From a virus: a stretch of DNA of 64,000 nucleotides. Position numbers and translations under genes: made by a program. The DNA is taken from UHGV virus genome UHGV-0179803, one strand, 5' to 3'. Of this stretch, positions 39,609 through 49,268 are shown in pieces. The notes under the pieces were generated by a model. That model was not told where the DNA came from and did no database searches. It saw only the letters and a list, made by a program, of their open reading frames with translations. Position 1 is the stretch's first letter. Each line of letters begins with the position of its first letter.

Positions 39609-39637
39609 TTGACTATTTCGCTGTTTTTTGGTAAAAT
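39609..39637 (+). promoter_or_regulatory. sigma70-like promoter with extended -10
   Basis: TTGACT-17 nt-TAAAAT preceded by TGG. Confidence 0.4.
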
Positions 39638-41162
39638 AGGTCACAGAGGTTTCTCCCAACTGAGAGGAAATATGGCTAAATATGGTTTAACAGATGCTGG
39701 GTTTATATTGCCCACGCTCAACGACTTGATCGTTGAAACTAAGCAGAGCTTGATCAGGGCGTTTGGGGATGATTTCAACGTCCAGAGTAACTCGGTTGCT
39801 GACAAGCTCACCACAATTTTTAACGAACGTGAATACCAGTTAATCCTCATGATGGCTGCTGTATACGCCTCCCAGACACTGTATGGGGCAGAAGGCATCT
39901 ACCTTGATGAATTACTGGGCAGACAAGGTGTTTATCGTAGAGGGCGTACCAAGGCTTCTGGTCAGTGCCAGTTGACGATTAACAATACTGTCCCCTACAA
40001 CATGATTTACGACACAGAAACTTACAGCATTGATAGTGGTAACTTCAAACTTGCAAGTAATGTACAGGTAGCAGGCAACATAATTGCTCATAAGATAACA
40101 GCACCGGATCTCAGAATTGGTAAATACACATTCCAGATGACCAACCAGGTTGATGGCACTATCTTTACCAAAACCATGATTCTTACTGATAAGGCACTGG
40201 ATTCAACAGACCTTGTTAGTTTCTACGGCGAAATCAAGCAATTTATTGTTGACAACTCCACTCTTTTGAACGAAGATCTGATTCAGGTTGACATGACCAC
40301 AGGTACATTGTGGATCGGCTACGATGCTACCCTTGAGCGTGTGGGTCTGAACAGTAAAGTTGACTTTCGTGTATCTCCGATTGTGGGCGAACGCGCTGTA
40401 GTGATGGAAGTGATTGCTGCTGAAGCAGGTGCTCTGTCGCGTGAAGCAAATACGGTGACTACAATCTCCCCAACACCGAGTGGTTTCATCTCCCTCACTA
40501 ACAGAGAGATGTTTAACGAAGGTACTAATGTGGAGACTGATGCAGAGTATCGTCTAAGAGCTACAGGAACAAACGCTGTAACCTCTAAAGCTACTCGTCC
40601 GGCGATCCTGAGTGCAGTTCAAAATGTGGCAGGTGTAAGTAGGGTAAGGGTATTTGCCAACAATACAGACAAGACCAACAGCCTTGGCATCCCGCCCTAT
40701 AAATTCCAGGTGGTTGTATTTGGTGGTGCCACTGCTGACATTTGCCAGGCTCTGTATGATACGATTGCCTGTACGAACAGAACCTACGGCAACCTGTTCT
40801 ACGATATCAACACCTCAGATGGTCAGGTGGAGAGGATTTACTACTCCAAAGCAAGCACCTATCGTCTGGACATCAGGGTAACATATTCAGGGGCTGCACT
40901 TTCTGCTACTGAAAAAGAATCAATTATAAATGCCATGATGTCAGTTGTTAACGGTCTTGATATTGCAGACACTCTCTACAACATCCAGCTTGTAGGTGCT
41001 GCTTCTGCCGCTGTCAGTATTGGTCGTTTTAACAAACTGAACATTCATGTGAAACCGATTGGTGCTTCAGATGAGGCTTATACAGCTAATGACATTACAG
41101 CCGCTATGTCAGAGGTGTTTGACCTTGATGAAAACAACATCACATTCCAGCAAATCATTTAA
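39609..41162 (+). CDS. tail/baseplate structural protein (hypothetical, 517 aa)
   Basis: ORF track; true start probably the internal ATG at about 39672 after GAGAGGAAAT; position-based. Confidence 0.4.
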   Translation: MTISLFFGKIGHRGFSQLRGNMAKYGLTDAGFILPTLNDLIVETKQSLIRAFGDDFNVQSNSVADKLTTIFNEREYQLILMMAAVYASQTLYGAEGIYLDELLGRQGVYRRGRTKASGQCQLTINNTVPYNMIYDTETYSIDSGNFKLASNVQVAGNIIAHKITAPDLRIGKYTFQMTNQVDGTIFTKTMILTDKALDSTDLVSFYGEIKQFIVDNSTLLNEDLIQVDMTTGTLWIGYDATLERVGLNSKVDFRVSPIVGERAVVMEVIAAEAGALSREANTVTTISPTPSGFISLTNREMFNEGTNVETDAEYRLRATGTNAVTSKATRPAILSAVQNVAGVSRVRVFANNTDKTNSLGIPPYKFQVVVFGGATADICQALYDTIACTNRTYGNLFYDINTSDGQVERIYYSKASTYRLDIRVTYSGAALSATEKESIINAMMSVVNGLDIADTLYNIQLVGAASAAVSIGRFNKLNIHVKPIGASDEAYTANDITAAMSEVFDLDENNITFQQII

Positions 41163-43952: not shown

Positions 43953-44993
43953 ATGGCTAAACCTAGTTTTCCTCTGGAGATATGGGCAGCGGAGGATCAA
44001 ATCCTCCCCAACTCCCATAAACAGAACAAGATGCGCCCCATTGACGACCTCTGGAGAAAAGGTTGGGATAAAGGGCAGAAACCATCGTGTGAAGAACTGA
44101 ACTATCTCCTGAACATGATGGCTACCTGGGCTAAATACATTTCTGAAGATCAGATCCCGTCTATGGAAGGACGTTATCTTATTAAGGACAACAACCTGAG
44201 TGATCTTCTGAATGTAGAGATTGCCCGTAAAAACCTTGGCATTGTTACCCAGGCTGAGACTGACGCTCGTTACGTTAAGATCACTGGTGACACAATGACA
44301 GGCCCTCTGGGGTTGCAACGTATTAATTTTGCGGCAGCGGAAACAGATGCGGCATGGATAGAAACCACAATCAGCCCAGATAAAACCTTGTTGGACTTCT
44401 GTCTGATGGATAACGTTGGTTCATTTGACGATGGTGGTACTTCCACAGTTGATGCTTTCCGTTGGAGATTCCAGCCTACACAACCAGATATCAACCCAGA
44501 GTTTACACTGATGCACCTGAATGCTATCTCTGTTAACCGTGCACTTCTCAAAGTCATCGGTAACATTGAAGCACAAGATAACGTGCGTTCCAACACAGTC
44601 ACCATCACTGGTACAGCTTCCTTCGGTAACGTCAGCGTATCGAGCCAGTTGACCACAGGTAGCTTCTATGCTAACGGTGGTTCCAACGTTGATAACATGA
44701 CAGTCCGTAGCCAGTATTGTGTGGTTGGTGGTCGCCATGTAGTTCGTTCAGTCAACGGTGTGAACGCAGATGGTAATGGTAACCTGACTATCAGTATCCC
44801 AGCTTCAGGCGTTCAGGATATTCGCTGCGGCGGTATGTTGATCGATGGGGTTTCTGATAACAGGGTACGTCCGGGTTATGTTATGAGAGGATGGGCTAAT
44901 GGTAATAAAAAAGAACTCCGTGGTGCAGGTTACTGGGCAGCTCCGCTACAGAAACTTGTTAACGGACAGTGGATTACCGTTCAGACATTATAA
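43953..44993 (+). CDS. tail fiber / receptor-binding protein, paralog 1
   Basis: N-terminus MAKPSFPLEIWAAED and C-terminus GYVMRGWANGNKKELRGAGYWAAPLQKLVNGQWITVQTL shared with 46032..47096; NLSDLLNVEIARKNLG fiber-type motif. Confidence 0.6.
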   Translation: MAKPSFPLEIWAAEDQILPNSHKQNKMRPIDDLWRKGWDKGQKPSCEELNYLLNMMATWAKYISEDQIPSMEGRYLIKDNNLSDLLNVEIARKNLGIVTQAETDARYVKITGDTMTGPLGLQRINFAAAETDAAWIETTISPDKTLLDFCLMDNVGSFDDGGTSTVDAFRWRFQPTQPDINPEFTLMHLNAISVNRALLKVIGNIEAQDNVRSNTVTITGTASFGNVSVSSQLTTGSFYANGGSNVDNMTVRSQYCVVGGRHVVRSVNGVNADGNGNLTISIPASGVQDIRCGGMLIDGVSDNRVRPGYVMRGWANGNKKELRGAGYWAAPLQKLVNGQWITVQTL

Positions 44994-45009
44994 TTGAGGG
45001 TTATAGATT

Positions 45010-45627
45010 ATGATTAAAATAGCTACAGGTTTTGAGTTGTATGATCCGCAAGAGCCTCGCCCAGAGGTGTTGGCTCTTGATGAAGATCAGCCACAAACCT
45101 TGGAATTAACAGAGCAGGAGATTGAAGATTACGCTCGCTATTCTGCTTACTTCCTTCGCAACGAGCACGGTGACTGGTATGCCCAGACCCGAGAATTACA
45201 GCAGATTGCCCAGGAATCTGGAGTAGAATACCTGTTTGCAGTCATAGAAGCTGATGGTTTACTGAAAATTGTAACCACGGACCCAACAGGTATTTTCCCC
45301 AGCAACGGTCTTCAAGTCCTGCATGGTAAACGAGAGGAGTTCCCGGAAGACATTGAAAACATGATCAATGCCTACCGCTGGAATGGTGAGAAATTTGTTG
45401 TTGATAACAAACCTTACATCGATGCTGCACAACAGGTTGTCGAAGAAGAGTTGCAATGGGCTACAGCAAGGCTTGGAGCTTTCAGCGACATGCTGGACTT
45501 GGATTATATACTCTCTCCTGCACAGGAGCAGTTTGTTAAGGAATTAAAACTTTACAGGATTCATCTACTGGAGATTGATATAAACAAAGCCCCCAACATA
45601 CATATCCCTGATCGCCCAGCCCTCTAA
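45010..45627 (+). CDS. tail fiber assembly chaperone (Tfa-like C-terminal domain)
   Basis: C-terminal LKLYRIHLLEIDINKAPNIHIPDRP resembles the conserved Tfa C-terminal motif (..YRV.L.RVD....PDI.WP..P). Confidence 0.6.
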   Translation: MIKIATGFELYDPQEPRPEVLALDEDQPQTLELTEQEIEDYARYSAYFLRNEHGDWYAQTRELQQIAQESGVEYLFAVIEADGLLKIVTTDPTGIFPSNGLQVLHGKREEFPEDIENMINAYRWNGEKFVVDNKPYIDAAQQVVEEELQWATARLGAFSDMLDLDYILSPAQEQFVKELKLYRIHLLEIDINKAPNIHIPDRPAL

Positions 45628-45636
45628 GGAGGTAAT

Positions 45637-45951
45637 GTGGAACTGGACTTTGGTACGCTTTTTGAGATAATCATGAGCGCTATTGTCCCTATAGGTGTCT
45701 GGATTTTTGGTCAGTGGCACGTAAAATGGAAAGCCGTCTCTAAAAGATTGGATGATTTAGAGAAGGACCTTATTTTGGTGAAAAGCAATATGGTTACGAA
45801 AGACAGACTTGACGCGGTGCTAAATCAGCGTCTTAAAGATATTCAAGATAACCTTGACGAACTAAGGAAAGAGGTCAAAGGTGACGTTAATGGATTGCGT
45901 AGTGATATTCAACAAATTATCCAGATTCTTCTCAGTAACAAGGAGAAATAA
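45637..45951 (+). CDS. membrane-anchored coiled-coil protein (holin or spanin-like candidate)
   Basis: GTG start after AGGAGG; one N-terminal TM segment IIMSAIVPIGVWIFGQW then coiled-coil region. Confidence 0.4.
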   Translation: MELDFGTLFEIIMSAIVPIGVWIFGQWHVKWKAVSKRLDDLEKDLILVKSNMVTKDRLDAVLNQRLKDIQDNLDELRKEVKGDVNGLRSDIQQIIQILLSNKEK

Positions 45952-46031
45952 CCTGCGGCAAGGAAGCCTCTGGTTGCATTTTGAGGAGTTTAGTGCTAAA
46001 ATAATGTCAAGAATTTTAGTCAGGAGAAAAC

Positions 46032-47096
46032 ATGCCAAAACCAACTTATCCGCTTGAGGTGTGGGCATATCAGGATGTGATGCTTGACACCACGCGAGAA
46101 TTAAATAAGGCCCAGCCTAGTAAGGAACAAAGGTTAGCTGGTTGGGACTTCAGTCAGAGAATCGCTGTTGAACATATGAATTTCGAGTTCAATATGATTA
46201 GTAACTGGCTGAAATACTTGAACGAAGAGGTTGTTCCTGGTTGGGATGATCGATTTTTAAAAGTTGCAAATAACCTAGCAGAAATACCGGATAAAGCTGC
46301 TGCAAGACAAAACTTAGGTTGCCTGACAATAGAGGAGATGGATGACCGTTATGTTCACCTAACAGGGGATACCTTGAAAGGTACTATGACTTTAGGGGTT
46401 ACAAGGATTAATTTTAAATCTGCTGATACAGACTCGTGTGCGATTTATTGTTCCACGATTGCAGATACCCCAGGGTATAAAGGTGGGGATAAAACCTATT
46501 TCGATTTTCGTATGGCAGACAACTACGGTACAGATGACATTGAGGCATCTTACTATACAGGCACAGAAGGATTCCGCTACAGATTCCACCCCGCAGGCGG
46601 TAGCTTGTTCACATTGATGAAATTGTGTGCTATCTCTCCAAACCGTGGGAGATTGTCCGTAGTAGGTGACATTATTGCTGCTGATAACTTACGTGCTGGT
46701 TCTATGAATGGTAACACTGTTGATATCTGGAGTACAGCTTCTGTATCAAGTCAGACACTGTGTGGTAACCTCTATACCAACAGTTTTAACTGCGATAGCC
46801 ACACAACCCGTAGTAATTACCATGTTGTAGGTGGAAGACATGTTTGCAGGTCAGTAAACGGTGCCACAGCGGATGGTAACGGCAACTTAACATTAACACT
46901 ACCTCAACCCGCTATCTCTGATGTTCGTTGTGGAGGTATGCTGATAGATGGCACAGGTGATAACCGCGTAAGGGCTGGCTACGTAATGCGTGGTTGGCAG
47001 AATGGTAATAAGAAACAATTGCGTGGCGCTGGCTATTGGGCAGCTCCACTCCAGAAACTGGTAAATGGTCAATGGATCACAGTACAGACATTGTAA
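46032..47096 (+). CDS. tail fiber / receptor-binding protein, paralog 2
   Basis: termini shared with 43953..44993 (MPKPTYPLEVWAYQD ... GYVMRGWQNGNKKQLRGAGYWAAPLQKLVNGQWITVQTL) with a divergent centre. Confidence 0.6.
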   Translation: MPKPTYPLEVWAYQDVMLDTTRELNKAQPSKEQRLAGWDFSQRIAVEHMNFEFNMISNWLKYLNEEVVPGWDDRFLKVANNLAEIPDKAAARQNLGCLTIEEMDDRYVHLTGDTLKGTMTLGVTRINFKSADTDSCAIYCSTIADTPGYKGGDKTYFDFRMADNYGTDDIEASYYTGTEGFRYRFHPAGGSLFTLMKLCAISPNRGRLSVVGDIIAADNLRAGSMNGNTVDIWSTASVSSQTLCGNLYTNSFNCDSHTTRSNYHVVGGRHVCRSVNGATADGNGNLTLTLPQPAISDVRCGGMLIDGTGDNRVRAGYVMRGWQNGNKKQLRGAGYWAAPLQKLVNGQWITVQTL

Positions 47097-47104
47097 AGAA
47101 GGGG

Positions 47105-47475
47105 TGATGTTTAAGAAAACCAAAGCCTTTTTGTGGATGTTGGTCGCAGCACCAGACGATCCCGACAAGGTATCTCAGACCAAGTTGTGGTCCAATATAG
47201 GTATGCTAGCTATGACTATCGTTTTCCTGCACATGGGGTACACTAATACTTTGCAGGAATGGTATGCATGGATCTATGCTCCTTCAGTTGCTTGCCCACA
47301 ACTGATCAGCAAGTTTATTTCACTTCGTTGGGGCTGGAGAAGTCCTTCTTTTGGTGAACGCTACCCAGATGAGGAGTATCCTGGTAGCAGATACTCAGGA
47401 GATTGTAACTACAGGCATTCTGAATGTTCTGACTCCCCCATTGAACCAGAAGATTATAGAGATTCAAGGAGATAA
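47105..47475 (+). CDS. small single-TM protein (hypothetical)
   Basis: ATG after AGAAGGGG; hydrophobic segment IGMLAMTIVFLHMGY; stop abuts the start of the next gene. Confidence 0.35.
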
Positions 47476-49231
47476 CGTGGCTCAAGATATGACAAACTTT
47501 GAGGAGGCCGTGGATCAGGTCATAATTGATTCTGAGCGCCTCCATCTGGTTGTCAATGGTACTGCCGTGGATGAAGTTGTGGTAGAGGATGGGACAACCA
47601 TCCCTACCGTCCGTAAGGCACTACTTGATAACCTGTATTTTAAAACTCCACCAATCCCGTGGGTATATGGTTCTTCCACCACAGTATTTAACCAGATTTA
47701 TGAATACAAAGCGGATGGAAAAATCACATGGTGGTATGCTCCTGGAGCATCTAAATCCACACCAGTGCGCTTGCCAGCAGACCCTTTCACCTCTACCGCG
47801 TGGAGGTTGTATACTGATGCCAACGTGCTTGCTGAATTCTATGCTAAACTGAGTAGCCCACTCTTCCAGGGGGATCCGCGTGTTCCGACACCGCCGATGG
47901 ATGATAAATCTCTGTCCATTGCCAACACCACATTCGTTGTTGACTATGTAGACAGCATTTTTGAAGCTATGGCTGGTATGCAGGTCACAGTTGGTTCCCT
48001 AGTTGTTCGTGGCTTATCAGAATTAGCTAACACTATTATTGACGGTACTTTAACTGTACGTGGTCCTTTAAATGCTTCCGACTTTGCTGGGCGTTTCAAA
48101 GAGTTGACTTTAACAGGTAAAGATTCCGCTATCAATTTTAACTGGACAGACAGGAACCATCCTAACTGGACCTCCACAGCGCTGGATCCTTACAACATCG
48201 AGACTCACCTGTTGACCTCTGATGTGATCCACAATGGTGCTCCGGTAAGTGATAACACCACTGTTCACTTCGATGGTCGCGGTAACAACTTCTTTGACTA
48301 CGTTTATATTCGGGGGAATTCTCAGAAAGATGTTCAGGAACCCACCCTGACGGTTGACGGTGTAACTCAAGTCAAAGATCTGAAAGTAACAGGTAAAGTT
48401 GAAGGTATTGTTCACTCTGTAGATGGTCTGGATATTTACCCGAACTATCTGGAAACAACTAACGATGCCCGTGTCAACGGTGACTTGCAGGTTGGTGGAT
48501 CAGTGGTTATTCAGGGTAATGCAATGGTTCAGGATTTGTCTACCAACACATTCAGATCTAACCAGCAGGCTACTTTTGAGGGTAACGGTATTGTTGCCAA
48601 TAAAGCTGCGATTACGACTTTAACTGGTACAACTGCCACCATTGATACTGGTAACTTCACTAATTGTAATGTGAATCACAACTTGCAGGTAAATGGGGAT
48701 GTAAGCCTGAACGCAGAGGGTAATGGTACGACTTATGTTCATAACATCCAGGTCTCTGGCACACTGACAGGTTGGATGCCGGATTACACAGGTAAAACTC
48801 TCAACTGTGGCGGTGTGAACGCATCAGGTAACATCAGCATCAATGGCGACCTCAGCGTTGGTGGTAGCACTACAATTGGGAAGATCCGTACAACCAAACT
48901 GGAATTCGAATCTGAGGATATCGCTGGCGCTACGGGGACATGGACCCCATCAGGAAATGCTAACATGTACGTTGTTGAAGTTACTGGCGACCTGAACGTA
49001 GCAACATGGCCTGGCGTTACAGCAGCTTCAGAAGAGGATAAACCTTATCCGTTCTCAGTGGTGATTTATTTCCGTCAGGATGCTACAGGGCATCAGGTCA
49101 CATTCAGTGATAAGTATGCAATCTTGTCTGCAACTCCTGTAGTTAACAACAAAGCCAATAGCGTGACCCTTTGTCAACTAACCTACCCTGGCTTCGGCGA
49201 CATTGTGGACGTTATTATTGCACAACGTTAA
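47476..49231 (+). CDS. tail fiber/spike-like protein (beta-rich, 585 aa)
   Basis: GTG start 5 nt after AAGGAG; repetitive N/G/T/V-rich beta-strand-like sequence; the track ORF start at 47351 lacks an RBS. Confidence 0.5.
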
Positions 49232-49237
49232 TTAATT

Positions 49238-49268
49238 AGCCTCTCCTGCGGGAGAGGCTTTACTGTTT
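49238..49268 (+). terminator. hairpin (attenuator/terminator-like)
   Basis: AGCCTCTCCTGCGGGAGAGGCT followed by TTACTGTTT; weak T-tract. Confidence 0.35.

Follow-up and report, generated by a model that had tools for sequence, protein, structure and literature searches.

We analysed a 64,000-nucleotide (nt) viral sequence (UHGV virus genome UHGV-0179803, one strand; hereafter the window) in which two paralogous fiber genes, A and B, occupy positions 43,953 to 47,096, separated by a gene for a Tfa-type tail fiber assembly chaperone and a gene for a small membrane-anchored protein (Table 1). Our reading, to which we assign a probability of roughly 0.8, is that the window represents a new rV5-like (Vequintavirinae) myophage and that this segment is its short tail fiber (STF) module, encoding two Mu gpS-type trimeric fibers that are both functional and whose tips have been homogenised by recurrent, bidirectional gene conversion together with purifying selection. 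Gene order and protein alignments identify the pair as the paralogous STFs gp33 and gp30 already described in rV5, and the locus as a known feature of rV5-like phages. The tip-restricted gene conversion and the new lineage appear to be modest additions to this picture.

Table 1. Features of the short tail fiber module and its surroundings in the window.
Feature	Position	Strand	Remarks
Baseplate wedge (Baseplate_J) protein	39672..41162	+	rV5 gp36 homologue; Pfam Baseplate_J
N4 gp65-like TIM-barrel fiber protein, 692 amino acids	41861..43939	+	rV5 gp34 homologue
Short tail fiber paralogue A, 346 amino acids	43953..44993	+	rV5 gp33 orthologue; ancestral-type copy
Putative docking domain (baseplate wedge) at the N-terminus of A, residues 1-104	43953..44264	+	phiTE STF homology
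Tip domain of A, residues 291-346	44823..44990	+	homogenised with B tip
Tfa-type tail fiber assembly chaperone, 205 amino acids	45010..45627	+	rV5 gp32 homologue; sole copy
Membrane-anchored coiled-coil protein, 104 amino acids	45637..45951	+	rV5 gp31 homologue; GTG start
Late-promoter-like motif TGCTAAAATA	45994..46003	+	29 nt upstream of B start codon
Short tail fiber paralogue B, 354 amino acids	46032..47096	+	rV5 gp30 position; derived copy, faster-evolving
Tip domain of B, residues 299-354	46926..47093	+	A/gp33 type; relatives' conversion tracts map here
Small membrane protein	47107..47475	+	rV5 gp29 homologue; variable C-terminal tail
Third fiber, rV5 gp28 / phiTE_241-type	47489..49231	+	64% identical to gp28; PHROG 4549
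Giant protein, 1939 amino acids	49267..55086	+	rV5 gp27 homologue; PHROG 15684

A megablast search of the locus against 50,697 phage records gave no match, and the locus was placed solely by protein-level and distant searches. We observed that A was 74-75% identical to the 'tail fiber protein' of Vequintavirus (rV5-like) phages, the majority of which have two matching places. Phages with three matching places (navn) were considered as carriers of a third paralogue; this was an artefact of a linear record that starts inside the locus. Comparison with the rV5 and MaxTheCat annotations showed that gene order was collinear, gene for gene, with rV5 gp36 to gp27. Amino acid identity to the rV5 counterpart was 80% for the wedge protein (gp36), 79% for the adjoining baseplate protein (gp35), 68% for the TIM-barrel fiber (gp34), 74% for A (gp33; tblastn), 44-46% for Tfa (gp32; depending on the alignment method), 51% for the coiled-coil protein (gp31), 47% for B (gp30), 78% for the small membrane protein (gp29; residues 4-80) and 53% over ~1440 amino acids for the giant protein (gp27). 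The A-gp33 and B-gp30 matches ran end to end; B was 43% identical to gp33. At the nucleotide level, the structural block was ~76% identical to Vequintavirus across just ~30% of its length, which is why we regard the window lineage as probably a new, genus-level relative of rV5.

Divergence from rV5 was uneven along the locus. Identity was 74-80% for A and its gp36, gp35 and gp29 neighbours, and 44% for Tfa, 51% for the gp31 homologue and 47% for B. The stretch from the A tip through the end of B (window positions 45010-47096) behaves, relative to rV5, as a fast-evolving or exchanged sub-module. No donor for the diverged Tfa-B sub-module was found in any database searched.

Both fibers fell into PHROG 4465 (tail fiber; E = 1e-150 for A, 5e-114 for B). 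Using a fiber family profile of 41 sequences, hhalign aligned residues 76-346 of A with residues 151-503 of Mu gpS (98%, E = 2.2e-13), and this included the extreme C-terminal tip (VQDIRCG...GYVMRGW...PLQKLVNGQWITV in the fiber versus VRDVRLG...GHVITGF...PVQKNINGTWYNV in gpS). The alignment starts at these residues, and the gpS-type N-terminal constant region is not present in the fiber. An AlphaFold2 (AF2) monomer model of A was of low confidence (pLDDT 65, pTM 0.35) and was fit only for a local Foldseek match, not for analysis of the tip or an interface. The sole significant match of this predicted structure was 5yvq_A, the Mu fiber-chaperone complex (E = 5.5e-7, probability 1.0, TM-score 0.20). 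HHpred similarity of rV5 gp30 and gp33 to T4 gp12 has been reported (PMC3606486); no T4 gp12 chain was among our phmmer and profile matches at E ≤ 10, nor among the Foldseek matches.

The N-terminal ~104 residues matched residues 1-106 of the STF of phage phiTE (PDB 9cuy; phmmer E = 2.4e-21 for A and 7.6e-9 for B; family profile E = 1.5e-26). Residues 3-92 of the phiTE STF form a trimeric joint bound to wedge 1, as seen with cryo-electron microscopy (cryo-EM; PMC11972413). By analogy with phiTE wedge 1 and phi92 gp145, the window's wedge protein is the probable docking platform for the short fibers (PMC11972413, PMC13450770). Many family members (P0022, P0027, P0070 and P0078-P0085) share only this docking domain with A (the N-terminal ~22%) and carry other distal domains (Pfam PF21882, the PF07484 collar and PF04513). 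These varied ends on a shared base suggest that the wedge-docking domain is a portable adaptor for many receptor-binding ends. We also observed the motif [FL]L..NL[AS][DE]..[ND]...AR.NLG, followed by D.RYV..TGDT, at 44170-44300 and 46250-46380 (fiber residues ~73-115). It occurs five times in the short tail fiber gp92 of Pakpunavirus P7-1 (PDB 9zd7) and is apparently a widespread shaft module.

The Tfa gene starts 17 nt after the end of A. As the preliminary description of this DNA had proposed from the letters alone, its product is a Tfa-type chaperone: it matched Pfam Caudo_TAP (PF02413; 27 bits against a cutoff of 22.1) and PHROG 136 (E = 3e-19), and it aligned over its full length with Mu gpU (hhalign 98.5%, E = 1.7e-15). 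A sequence search of the PDB with Tfa gave no meaningful match, and the relationship to gpU required profile comparison. TfaMu binds the fiber tip with a variable N-terminal domain, and it is the conserved C-terminal helices that drive trimerisation (PMC9608196, a summary of North et al. 2019). We found no inverted fiber copy in the module; A and B are both complete and lie on one strand, and each has a separate start codon and Shine-Dalgarno (SD) sequence. No invertase was identified in the domain scans, which covered the module proteins only.

We next compared A and B with each other by pairwise protein and DNA alignment. The preliminary description had listed two genes of these lengths with shared ends and divergent centres, and both were intact open reading frames (ORFs). 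BLASTP aligned the proteins end to end (51% identity, E = 6e-120); they are thus homologous throughout, centres included, and do not merely have their ends in common. Segment analysis along A showed 36% identity for residues 1-72, 48% for 73-130, 40% for 131-250, 62% for 251-290 and 91% for 291-346; only the C-terminal ~56 residues stood out. The shared ends were real in part. An N-terminal motif was present in both proteins (MAKPSFPLEIWA / MPKPTYPLEVWA) and 37 of the last 39 residues were identical, but the N-terminal shared stretch is just 12 residues long and lies in the least conserved segment. The shafts differed by indels of 2-9 residues.

The proposed divergence of synonymous sites in the shared C-terminus was borne out. 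Over the last 40 codons, the proportion of differences was 0.07 at non-synonymous sites (pN) and 0.87 at synonymous sites (pS). Shared C-terminal residues used the same codon at 16 positions, compared to 18.8 ± 3.2 expected under random codon choice, which indicates synonymous saturation. These counts showed no excess difference, and selection against recombination between direct repeats, which would make tip codons more different than chance, was rejected as an explanation.

The two ends of the fibers gave different phylogenetic signals. Over residues 1-290, A grouped with gp33 (73-79% identity) and B grouped weakly with gp30 (39-62%), clearly in residues 1-130 only. Over residues 291-346, identity was 91% between A and B, compared to 62% for A-gp33, 57% for B-gp33, 36% for B-gp30 and 44% for gp33-gp30. 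Quartet-informative sites supported orthology 32:1 to the left of the breakpoint and 1:8 to the right (Fisher P = 7e-7). Sites at which A matched gp33 and differed from B numbered 105 to the left of residue 290 and 3 to the right; sites at which A matched B and differed from gp33 numbered 15 and 19 (P = 1e-11). These comparisons indicate that the near-identity of the tips is lineage-specific homogenisation and not mere retention since an old duplication.

We then assessed relatives of the window, namely four IMG/VR contigs (L003, L004, L005 and L008; ~90% nt identity) and one ENA contig (L017; 93% for A, 83% for B). In L017, the A and B tips were 95% identical and had private residues in common, and orthologous comparisons between L017 and the window gave 84-89%. 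The longest identical nucleotide tracts between A and B were 110 nt in L017, 59 and 39 nt in L003, 29 nt in L005 and 30 nt in rV5, against a background of 55-70% identity. No perfectly identical tract of at least 12 nt was found between A and B of the window. Painting of 77 diagnostic sites showed B-type tracts in A of L003 and of L005 and an A-type tract in B of L017. Because the tracts run in both directions and occur in several genomes, these data indicate that conversion has been recurrent, bidirectional and limited to the tip, recent tracts having renewed the homogenisation in the relatives. The window's last conversion appears to be old, since its synonymous sites are saturated and the match persists in the protein only. 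Retention of 91% protein identity despite that saturation points to strong purifying selection on top of conversion. We found nothing relevant on gene conversion between phage tail fiber paralogues in the literature (open-access papers only).

Purifying selection alone, acting without recombination since an ancient duplication, was the implicit model of the preliminary description. The full synonymous saturation of the window tips is what it would produce. Against it, the same residues differ in the rV5 orthologues, the tip tree groups sequences by genome and not by orthology, and the relatives have long, perfectly identical nucleotide tracts with varied boundaries and directions. We consider this model very improbable as an explanation of the C-terminal identity.

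To describe the maintenance of the two copies, we scored intactness in six genomes (the window and all five relatives) and dN/dS in five (the window and the four IMG/VR contigs). All module genes were intact in the five relatives, and neither A nor B had a frameshift or stop in any of the six genomes. Within-clade dN/dS was 0.031 for A, 0.083 for B, 0.132 for Tfa and 0.107 for the gp31 homologue. A and B are thus under strong purifying selection. A strong ribosome-binding site, tcAGGAGAaa, is common to both fiber genes.

The 80-nt gap before B contains TGCTAAAATA (Table 1). The pattern TG[GC]TAAAATA had exactly two matches in the 64 kb (0.31 expected), this one and another at 39629-39638, each ~30 nt upstream of the start of a plus-strand gene; the second precedes the true ATG of the wedge gene at 39672. 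(The TTG start at 39609 listed for the wedge ORF is probably wrong, as homology to gp36 begins at residue 22, which is that ATG.) The pre-B motif was kept in all clade members, has the form TGTTAAAATA in rV5 and resembles the rV5 late-promoter motif TggTAaAAtA (PMC3606486). Its probable role is that of a late promoter, providing B with a separate transcription start. An upstream TTGCATTTTG block accompanies the motif and is likewise kept in all clade relatives and in rV5.

These results agree with the earlier proposal that the duplication is old and that both copies are maintained. The view of either copy as redundant or decaying, for which frameshifts or lost expression had been named as signs, is hardly credible. 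B is the more divergent copy and has few database relatives, as a decaying gene might. However, its reading frame is intact in all six genomes, its dN/dS is far from neutral over five, it has a strong SD and a conserved upstream motif, and its rV5 homologue gp30 is a virion protein (PMC3606486).

Single-copy STFs were found in Avunavirus, Seunavirus, Phapecoctavirus, Justusliebigvirus and three metagenomic lineages. The order at these loci was always STF, Tfa, a ~105-amino-acid transmembrane (TM) protein, one or more small membrane proteins, and a fiber. Over residues 1-72, the single-copy STFs were 57-65% identical to A/gp33, compared to 36-47% to B/gp30. Because of this closeness to A/gp33, we take A to be the ancestral type, and B/gp30 the derived copy common to rV5 and the window clade. 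The duplication is, on the distribution of single and paired loci, confined to rV5 and the window clade. Only three closer relatives of B (83-93% identity) were present among 5.8 billion proteins. A 157-amino-acid ORF in B's slot in Avunavirus and Seunavirus was evaluated as a second-fiber remnant and rejected; it encodes an unrelated polytopic membrane protein.

We propose that the N-terminal ~100 residues of each fiber would dock it on the baseplate wedge. A and B would probably dock at different baseplate sites or in different poses or geometries, since their docking domains are just 36% identical and each is conserved with its own orthologue. The lone Tfa would fold both fibers from the C-terminal tip. 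The tip would bear or adjoin the receptor site, and both fibers would bind a terminal receptor of the lipopolysaccharide (LPS) core type, committing the phage to contraction. Genetic evidence for the LPS outer core (first glucose) as terminal receptor concerns LL12 and the BASEL Vequintavirinae only (PMC8594841). With the receptor site at or beside the matched tip, both fibers probably share one specificity in the window phage. The tips would most likely have been matched because a common chaperone, a common receptor, or both, have to accept the two of them.

Homogenisation could be due to the common chaperone, to a common receptor, or in part to neutral conversion where the two genes are most alike. 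The first of these, in its strong form, is possible, but on balance we doubt it. One Tfa for two fibers would mean that selection favours tip-matching conversion, and the docking domains would have diverged to distinct baseplate sites. If this is correct, the double short-fiber set with one specificity would be an avidity or geometry device and not a host-range device. It would also be a clear natural case in which viral paralogues evolve in concert because they share an assembly factor, and would supply a design rule for the engineering of multi-fiber phages.

Several points weigh against our interpretation. The tips of rV5 gp33 and gp30 are just 44% identical though rV5 also has one Tfa; tips need not, then, be nearly identical for one chaperone to serve both fibers, which weakens the strict chaperone argument. 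The constraint may be limited to the last ~15 residues, may be driven by the receptor, or may be partly neutral. Virion presence, receptor and chaperone dependence were inferred from rV5, Mu, phiTE and phi92. The AF2 model is a low-confidence monomer. Finally, the relatives that carry the tracts are metagenome assemblies, for which chimeric assembly is possible, although contigs from separate samples have different tracts.

The paralogues might instead be bivalent, with A and B binding two different terminal receptors (e.g., two LPS core chemotypes) and thereby widening the host range. This two-receptor idea was put forward for rV5 by Kropinski et al. (PMC3606486), whose phage does have unlike tips. 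In the window, the shaft and pre-tip differ between the copies (40% identity for residues 131-250, 62% for 251-290), B evolves ~2.5 times faster than A at non-synonymous sites, and B is distant from rV5 gp30 (47%). However, the distal tip (homologous to the C-terminus of Mu gpS) is 91-95% identical between A and B in the clade and is actively re-homogenised. In addition, Maffei et al. saw that the paralogues were invariant among Vequintavirus genomes, consistent with one shared secondary receptor (PMC8594841). We consider bivalence unlikely.

The preliminary description had suggested a multivalent adsorption apparatus or host-range module swapping. The former is right for the wider locus, which is a multivalent fiber apparatus known from rV5 and phi92 (PMC8594841, PMC13450770), but the near-identical tips of A and B argue against two tip specificities. 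Module swapping found no support, as A and B are conserved short tail fibers whose distal tip is nearly identical between the copies.

A single chaperone and a near-identical tip at which trimerisation is nucleated, along with the conserved 12-residue N-terminal motif, would also suit mixed trimers, in which one Tfa would nucleate A and B at their common tip and the extreme N-terminus would join them, to give one fiber species from two genes. The shafts speak against such heterotrimers, being ~40% identical with indels of 2-9 residues, as do the docking domains at 36%. A and B are each conserved along with their respective orthologues, a promoter-like element precedes B separately, and we found no precedent in the Mu, phiTE and phi92 structures. 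Mixed trimers seem to us quite improbable.

We also assessed the neighbouring genes. The 104-amino-acid protein between Tfa and B has a TM helix at residues 5-25 (Kyte-Doolittle 1.88) followed by a heptad region with 40% charged residues (PHROG 5345, E = 4e-34), in keeping with its earlier description as a small membrane-anchored coiled-coil protein. A ~105-amino-acid protein of this kind directly follows Tfa in all Vequintavirinae and Stephanstirmvirinae lineages examined, whether they have one fiber or two. The gp31-type protein is not listed among rV5 virion proteins; the link between its gene and the fiber-chaperone pair is conserved.

A third fiber and a giant immunoglobulin (Ig)-domain protein had been placed next to B. 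Both do follow, but the small membrane protein gene between B and the third fiber had been missed, and the Ig label depends on a single PHROG match (residues 1737-1822); Pfam gave a sub-threshold RCC1-like match only. The small membrane protein matched PHROG 1322 (membrane protein). The N-terminal ~80 residues of this gp29 homologue are conserved, and its C-terminal tail is variable, charged and of low complexity. Its length is 88 amino acids in rV5, 90 in L003 and L008, 122 in the window and 126 in L004, L005 and L017, and its dN/dS of 0.18 is the highest in the module. The upstream starts of the ORFs listed at 47065 and 47351 are probably wrong. The third fiber matched its PHROG at E = 6e-205, and its L017 orthologue has Pfam Phage_phiTE_241_N/C. 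In L017 (9207-13056), the more distant clade member, minus-strand genes come immediately after the gp28-type fiber, and a gp27-type giant gene is absent from that position.

Two hairpins were observed in this region. A perfect GC-rich hairpin, GGGGGCCTTGGTGGCCCCC, at 55113-55131, with T-runs on both strands, closes the plus-strand structural block just behind the giant gene, where the rV5 annotation likewise has bidirectional terminators. Another hairpin resembling a terminator is at 49238-49259, between the third fiber and the giant gene. Upstream of A, the gp34 homologue matched Pfam TIM-barrel_NCTSP (E = 3e-78) and NCTSP_N (E = 9e-15), the N4 gp65-type 'non-contractile tail sheath protein' domains. 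The gp34-type, deacetylase-type fiber has been tied by other authors to recognition of ECA/NGR polysaccharides in Vequintavirinae and N4-like phages.

rV5-like phages are popular candidates for therapy and biocontrol. Paired short fibers with a Mu-type chaperone are a described hallmark of this group, and the overall picture is mostly unchanged by our data. The window and six metagenomic relatives (the four IMG/VR contigs, the ENA contig and one further protein cluster) appear to define a new lineage, in which divergence is far greater for the second fiber, the chaperone and the gp31 homologue than elsewhere in the module. The tip conversion separates the constrained part of the fiber (the tip) from the parts that are free to differ (the docking domain and shaft). 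Our reading predicts that A and B differ in baseplate seating and not in ligand; this can be tested, bears on fiber engineering, and is absent from the papers we cite.

Comparison with known systems places the module among baseplate-bound short fibers. T4 gp12 is a functional analogue, being a baseplate-bound short fiber that binds the LPS core. The chaperone of the T4 short tail fiber is gp57A, not a Tfa. The STF of Pectobacterium phage phiTE (PDB 9cuy/9mjn) is homologous in its N-terminal ~100 residues and similar in its extreme C-terminal motif, whereas it is a single-copy protein of 554 amino acids with a coiled coil and an Ig-rich distal part, from a flagellotropic phage. phi92 fiber III and the single STF of Justusliebigvirus and Phapecoctavirus belong to the same family and locus (STF, Tfa, small TM protein), with C-terminal tips that are 49-55% identical in the representatives ukendt and EmilieFrey. 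They differ in being single, with a coiled-coil-like shaft and 10-21% identity in the middle. Single copies in phi92-like and Phapecoctavirus phages were also noted by Maffei et al. (PMC8594841). By cryo-EM, phi92 gp147 is 'fiber III', which is attached beneath the wedge protein's (gp145) C-terminal domain and changes its arrangement on contraction (PMC13450770).

The closest counterpart is rV5, whose two paralogous STFs and Mu gpS/gpU-type chaperone were described by Kropinski et al. in 2013 and Maffei et al. in 2021 (PMC3606486, PMC8594841). In rV5, gp30 and gp33 are of similar size and 42% identical, and gp30, gp32 and gp33 were shown in virions by mass spectrometry (PMC3606486). For the window's A and B, purifying selection and the expression signals lend indirect support to a place in the virion. 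The rV5 series gp33-gp32-gp31-gp30 has the same gene order and sizes as the window, one Tfa between the fibers, a promoter-like motif before the second copy, and the same gp34 and gp29-gp27 flanks. The two differ in that the window's A and B tips are 91% identical, compared to 44% in rV5, and in that the window's B, Tfa and gp31 homologue have diverged far beyond the genes next to them.

Phage Mu has an invertible G segment with an invertase that switches two different tips. The window resembles Mu gpS/gpU (PDB 5YVQ) in the homology of the fiber and of the full-length chaperone, and in the chaperone gene lying directly downstream of the fiber gene. The window's docking domain, in contrast, is not gpS-like, and in place of an inverted S'/U' cassette there are two complete, directly oriented, co-expressed fiber genes with one chaperone. 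Mu alternates two unlike tips, whereas the window phage would keep two tips alike.

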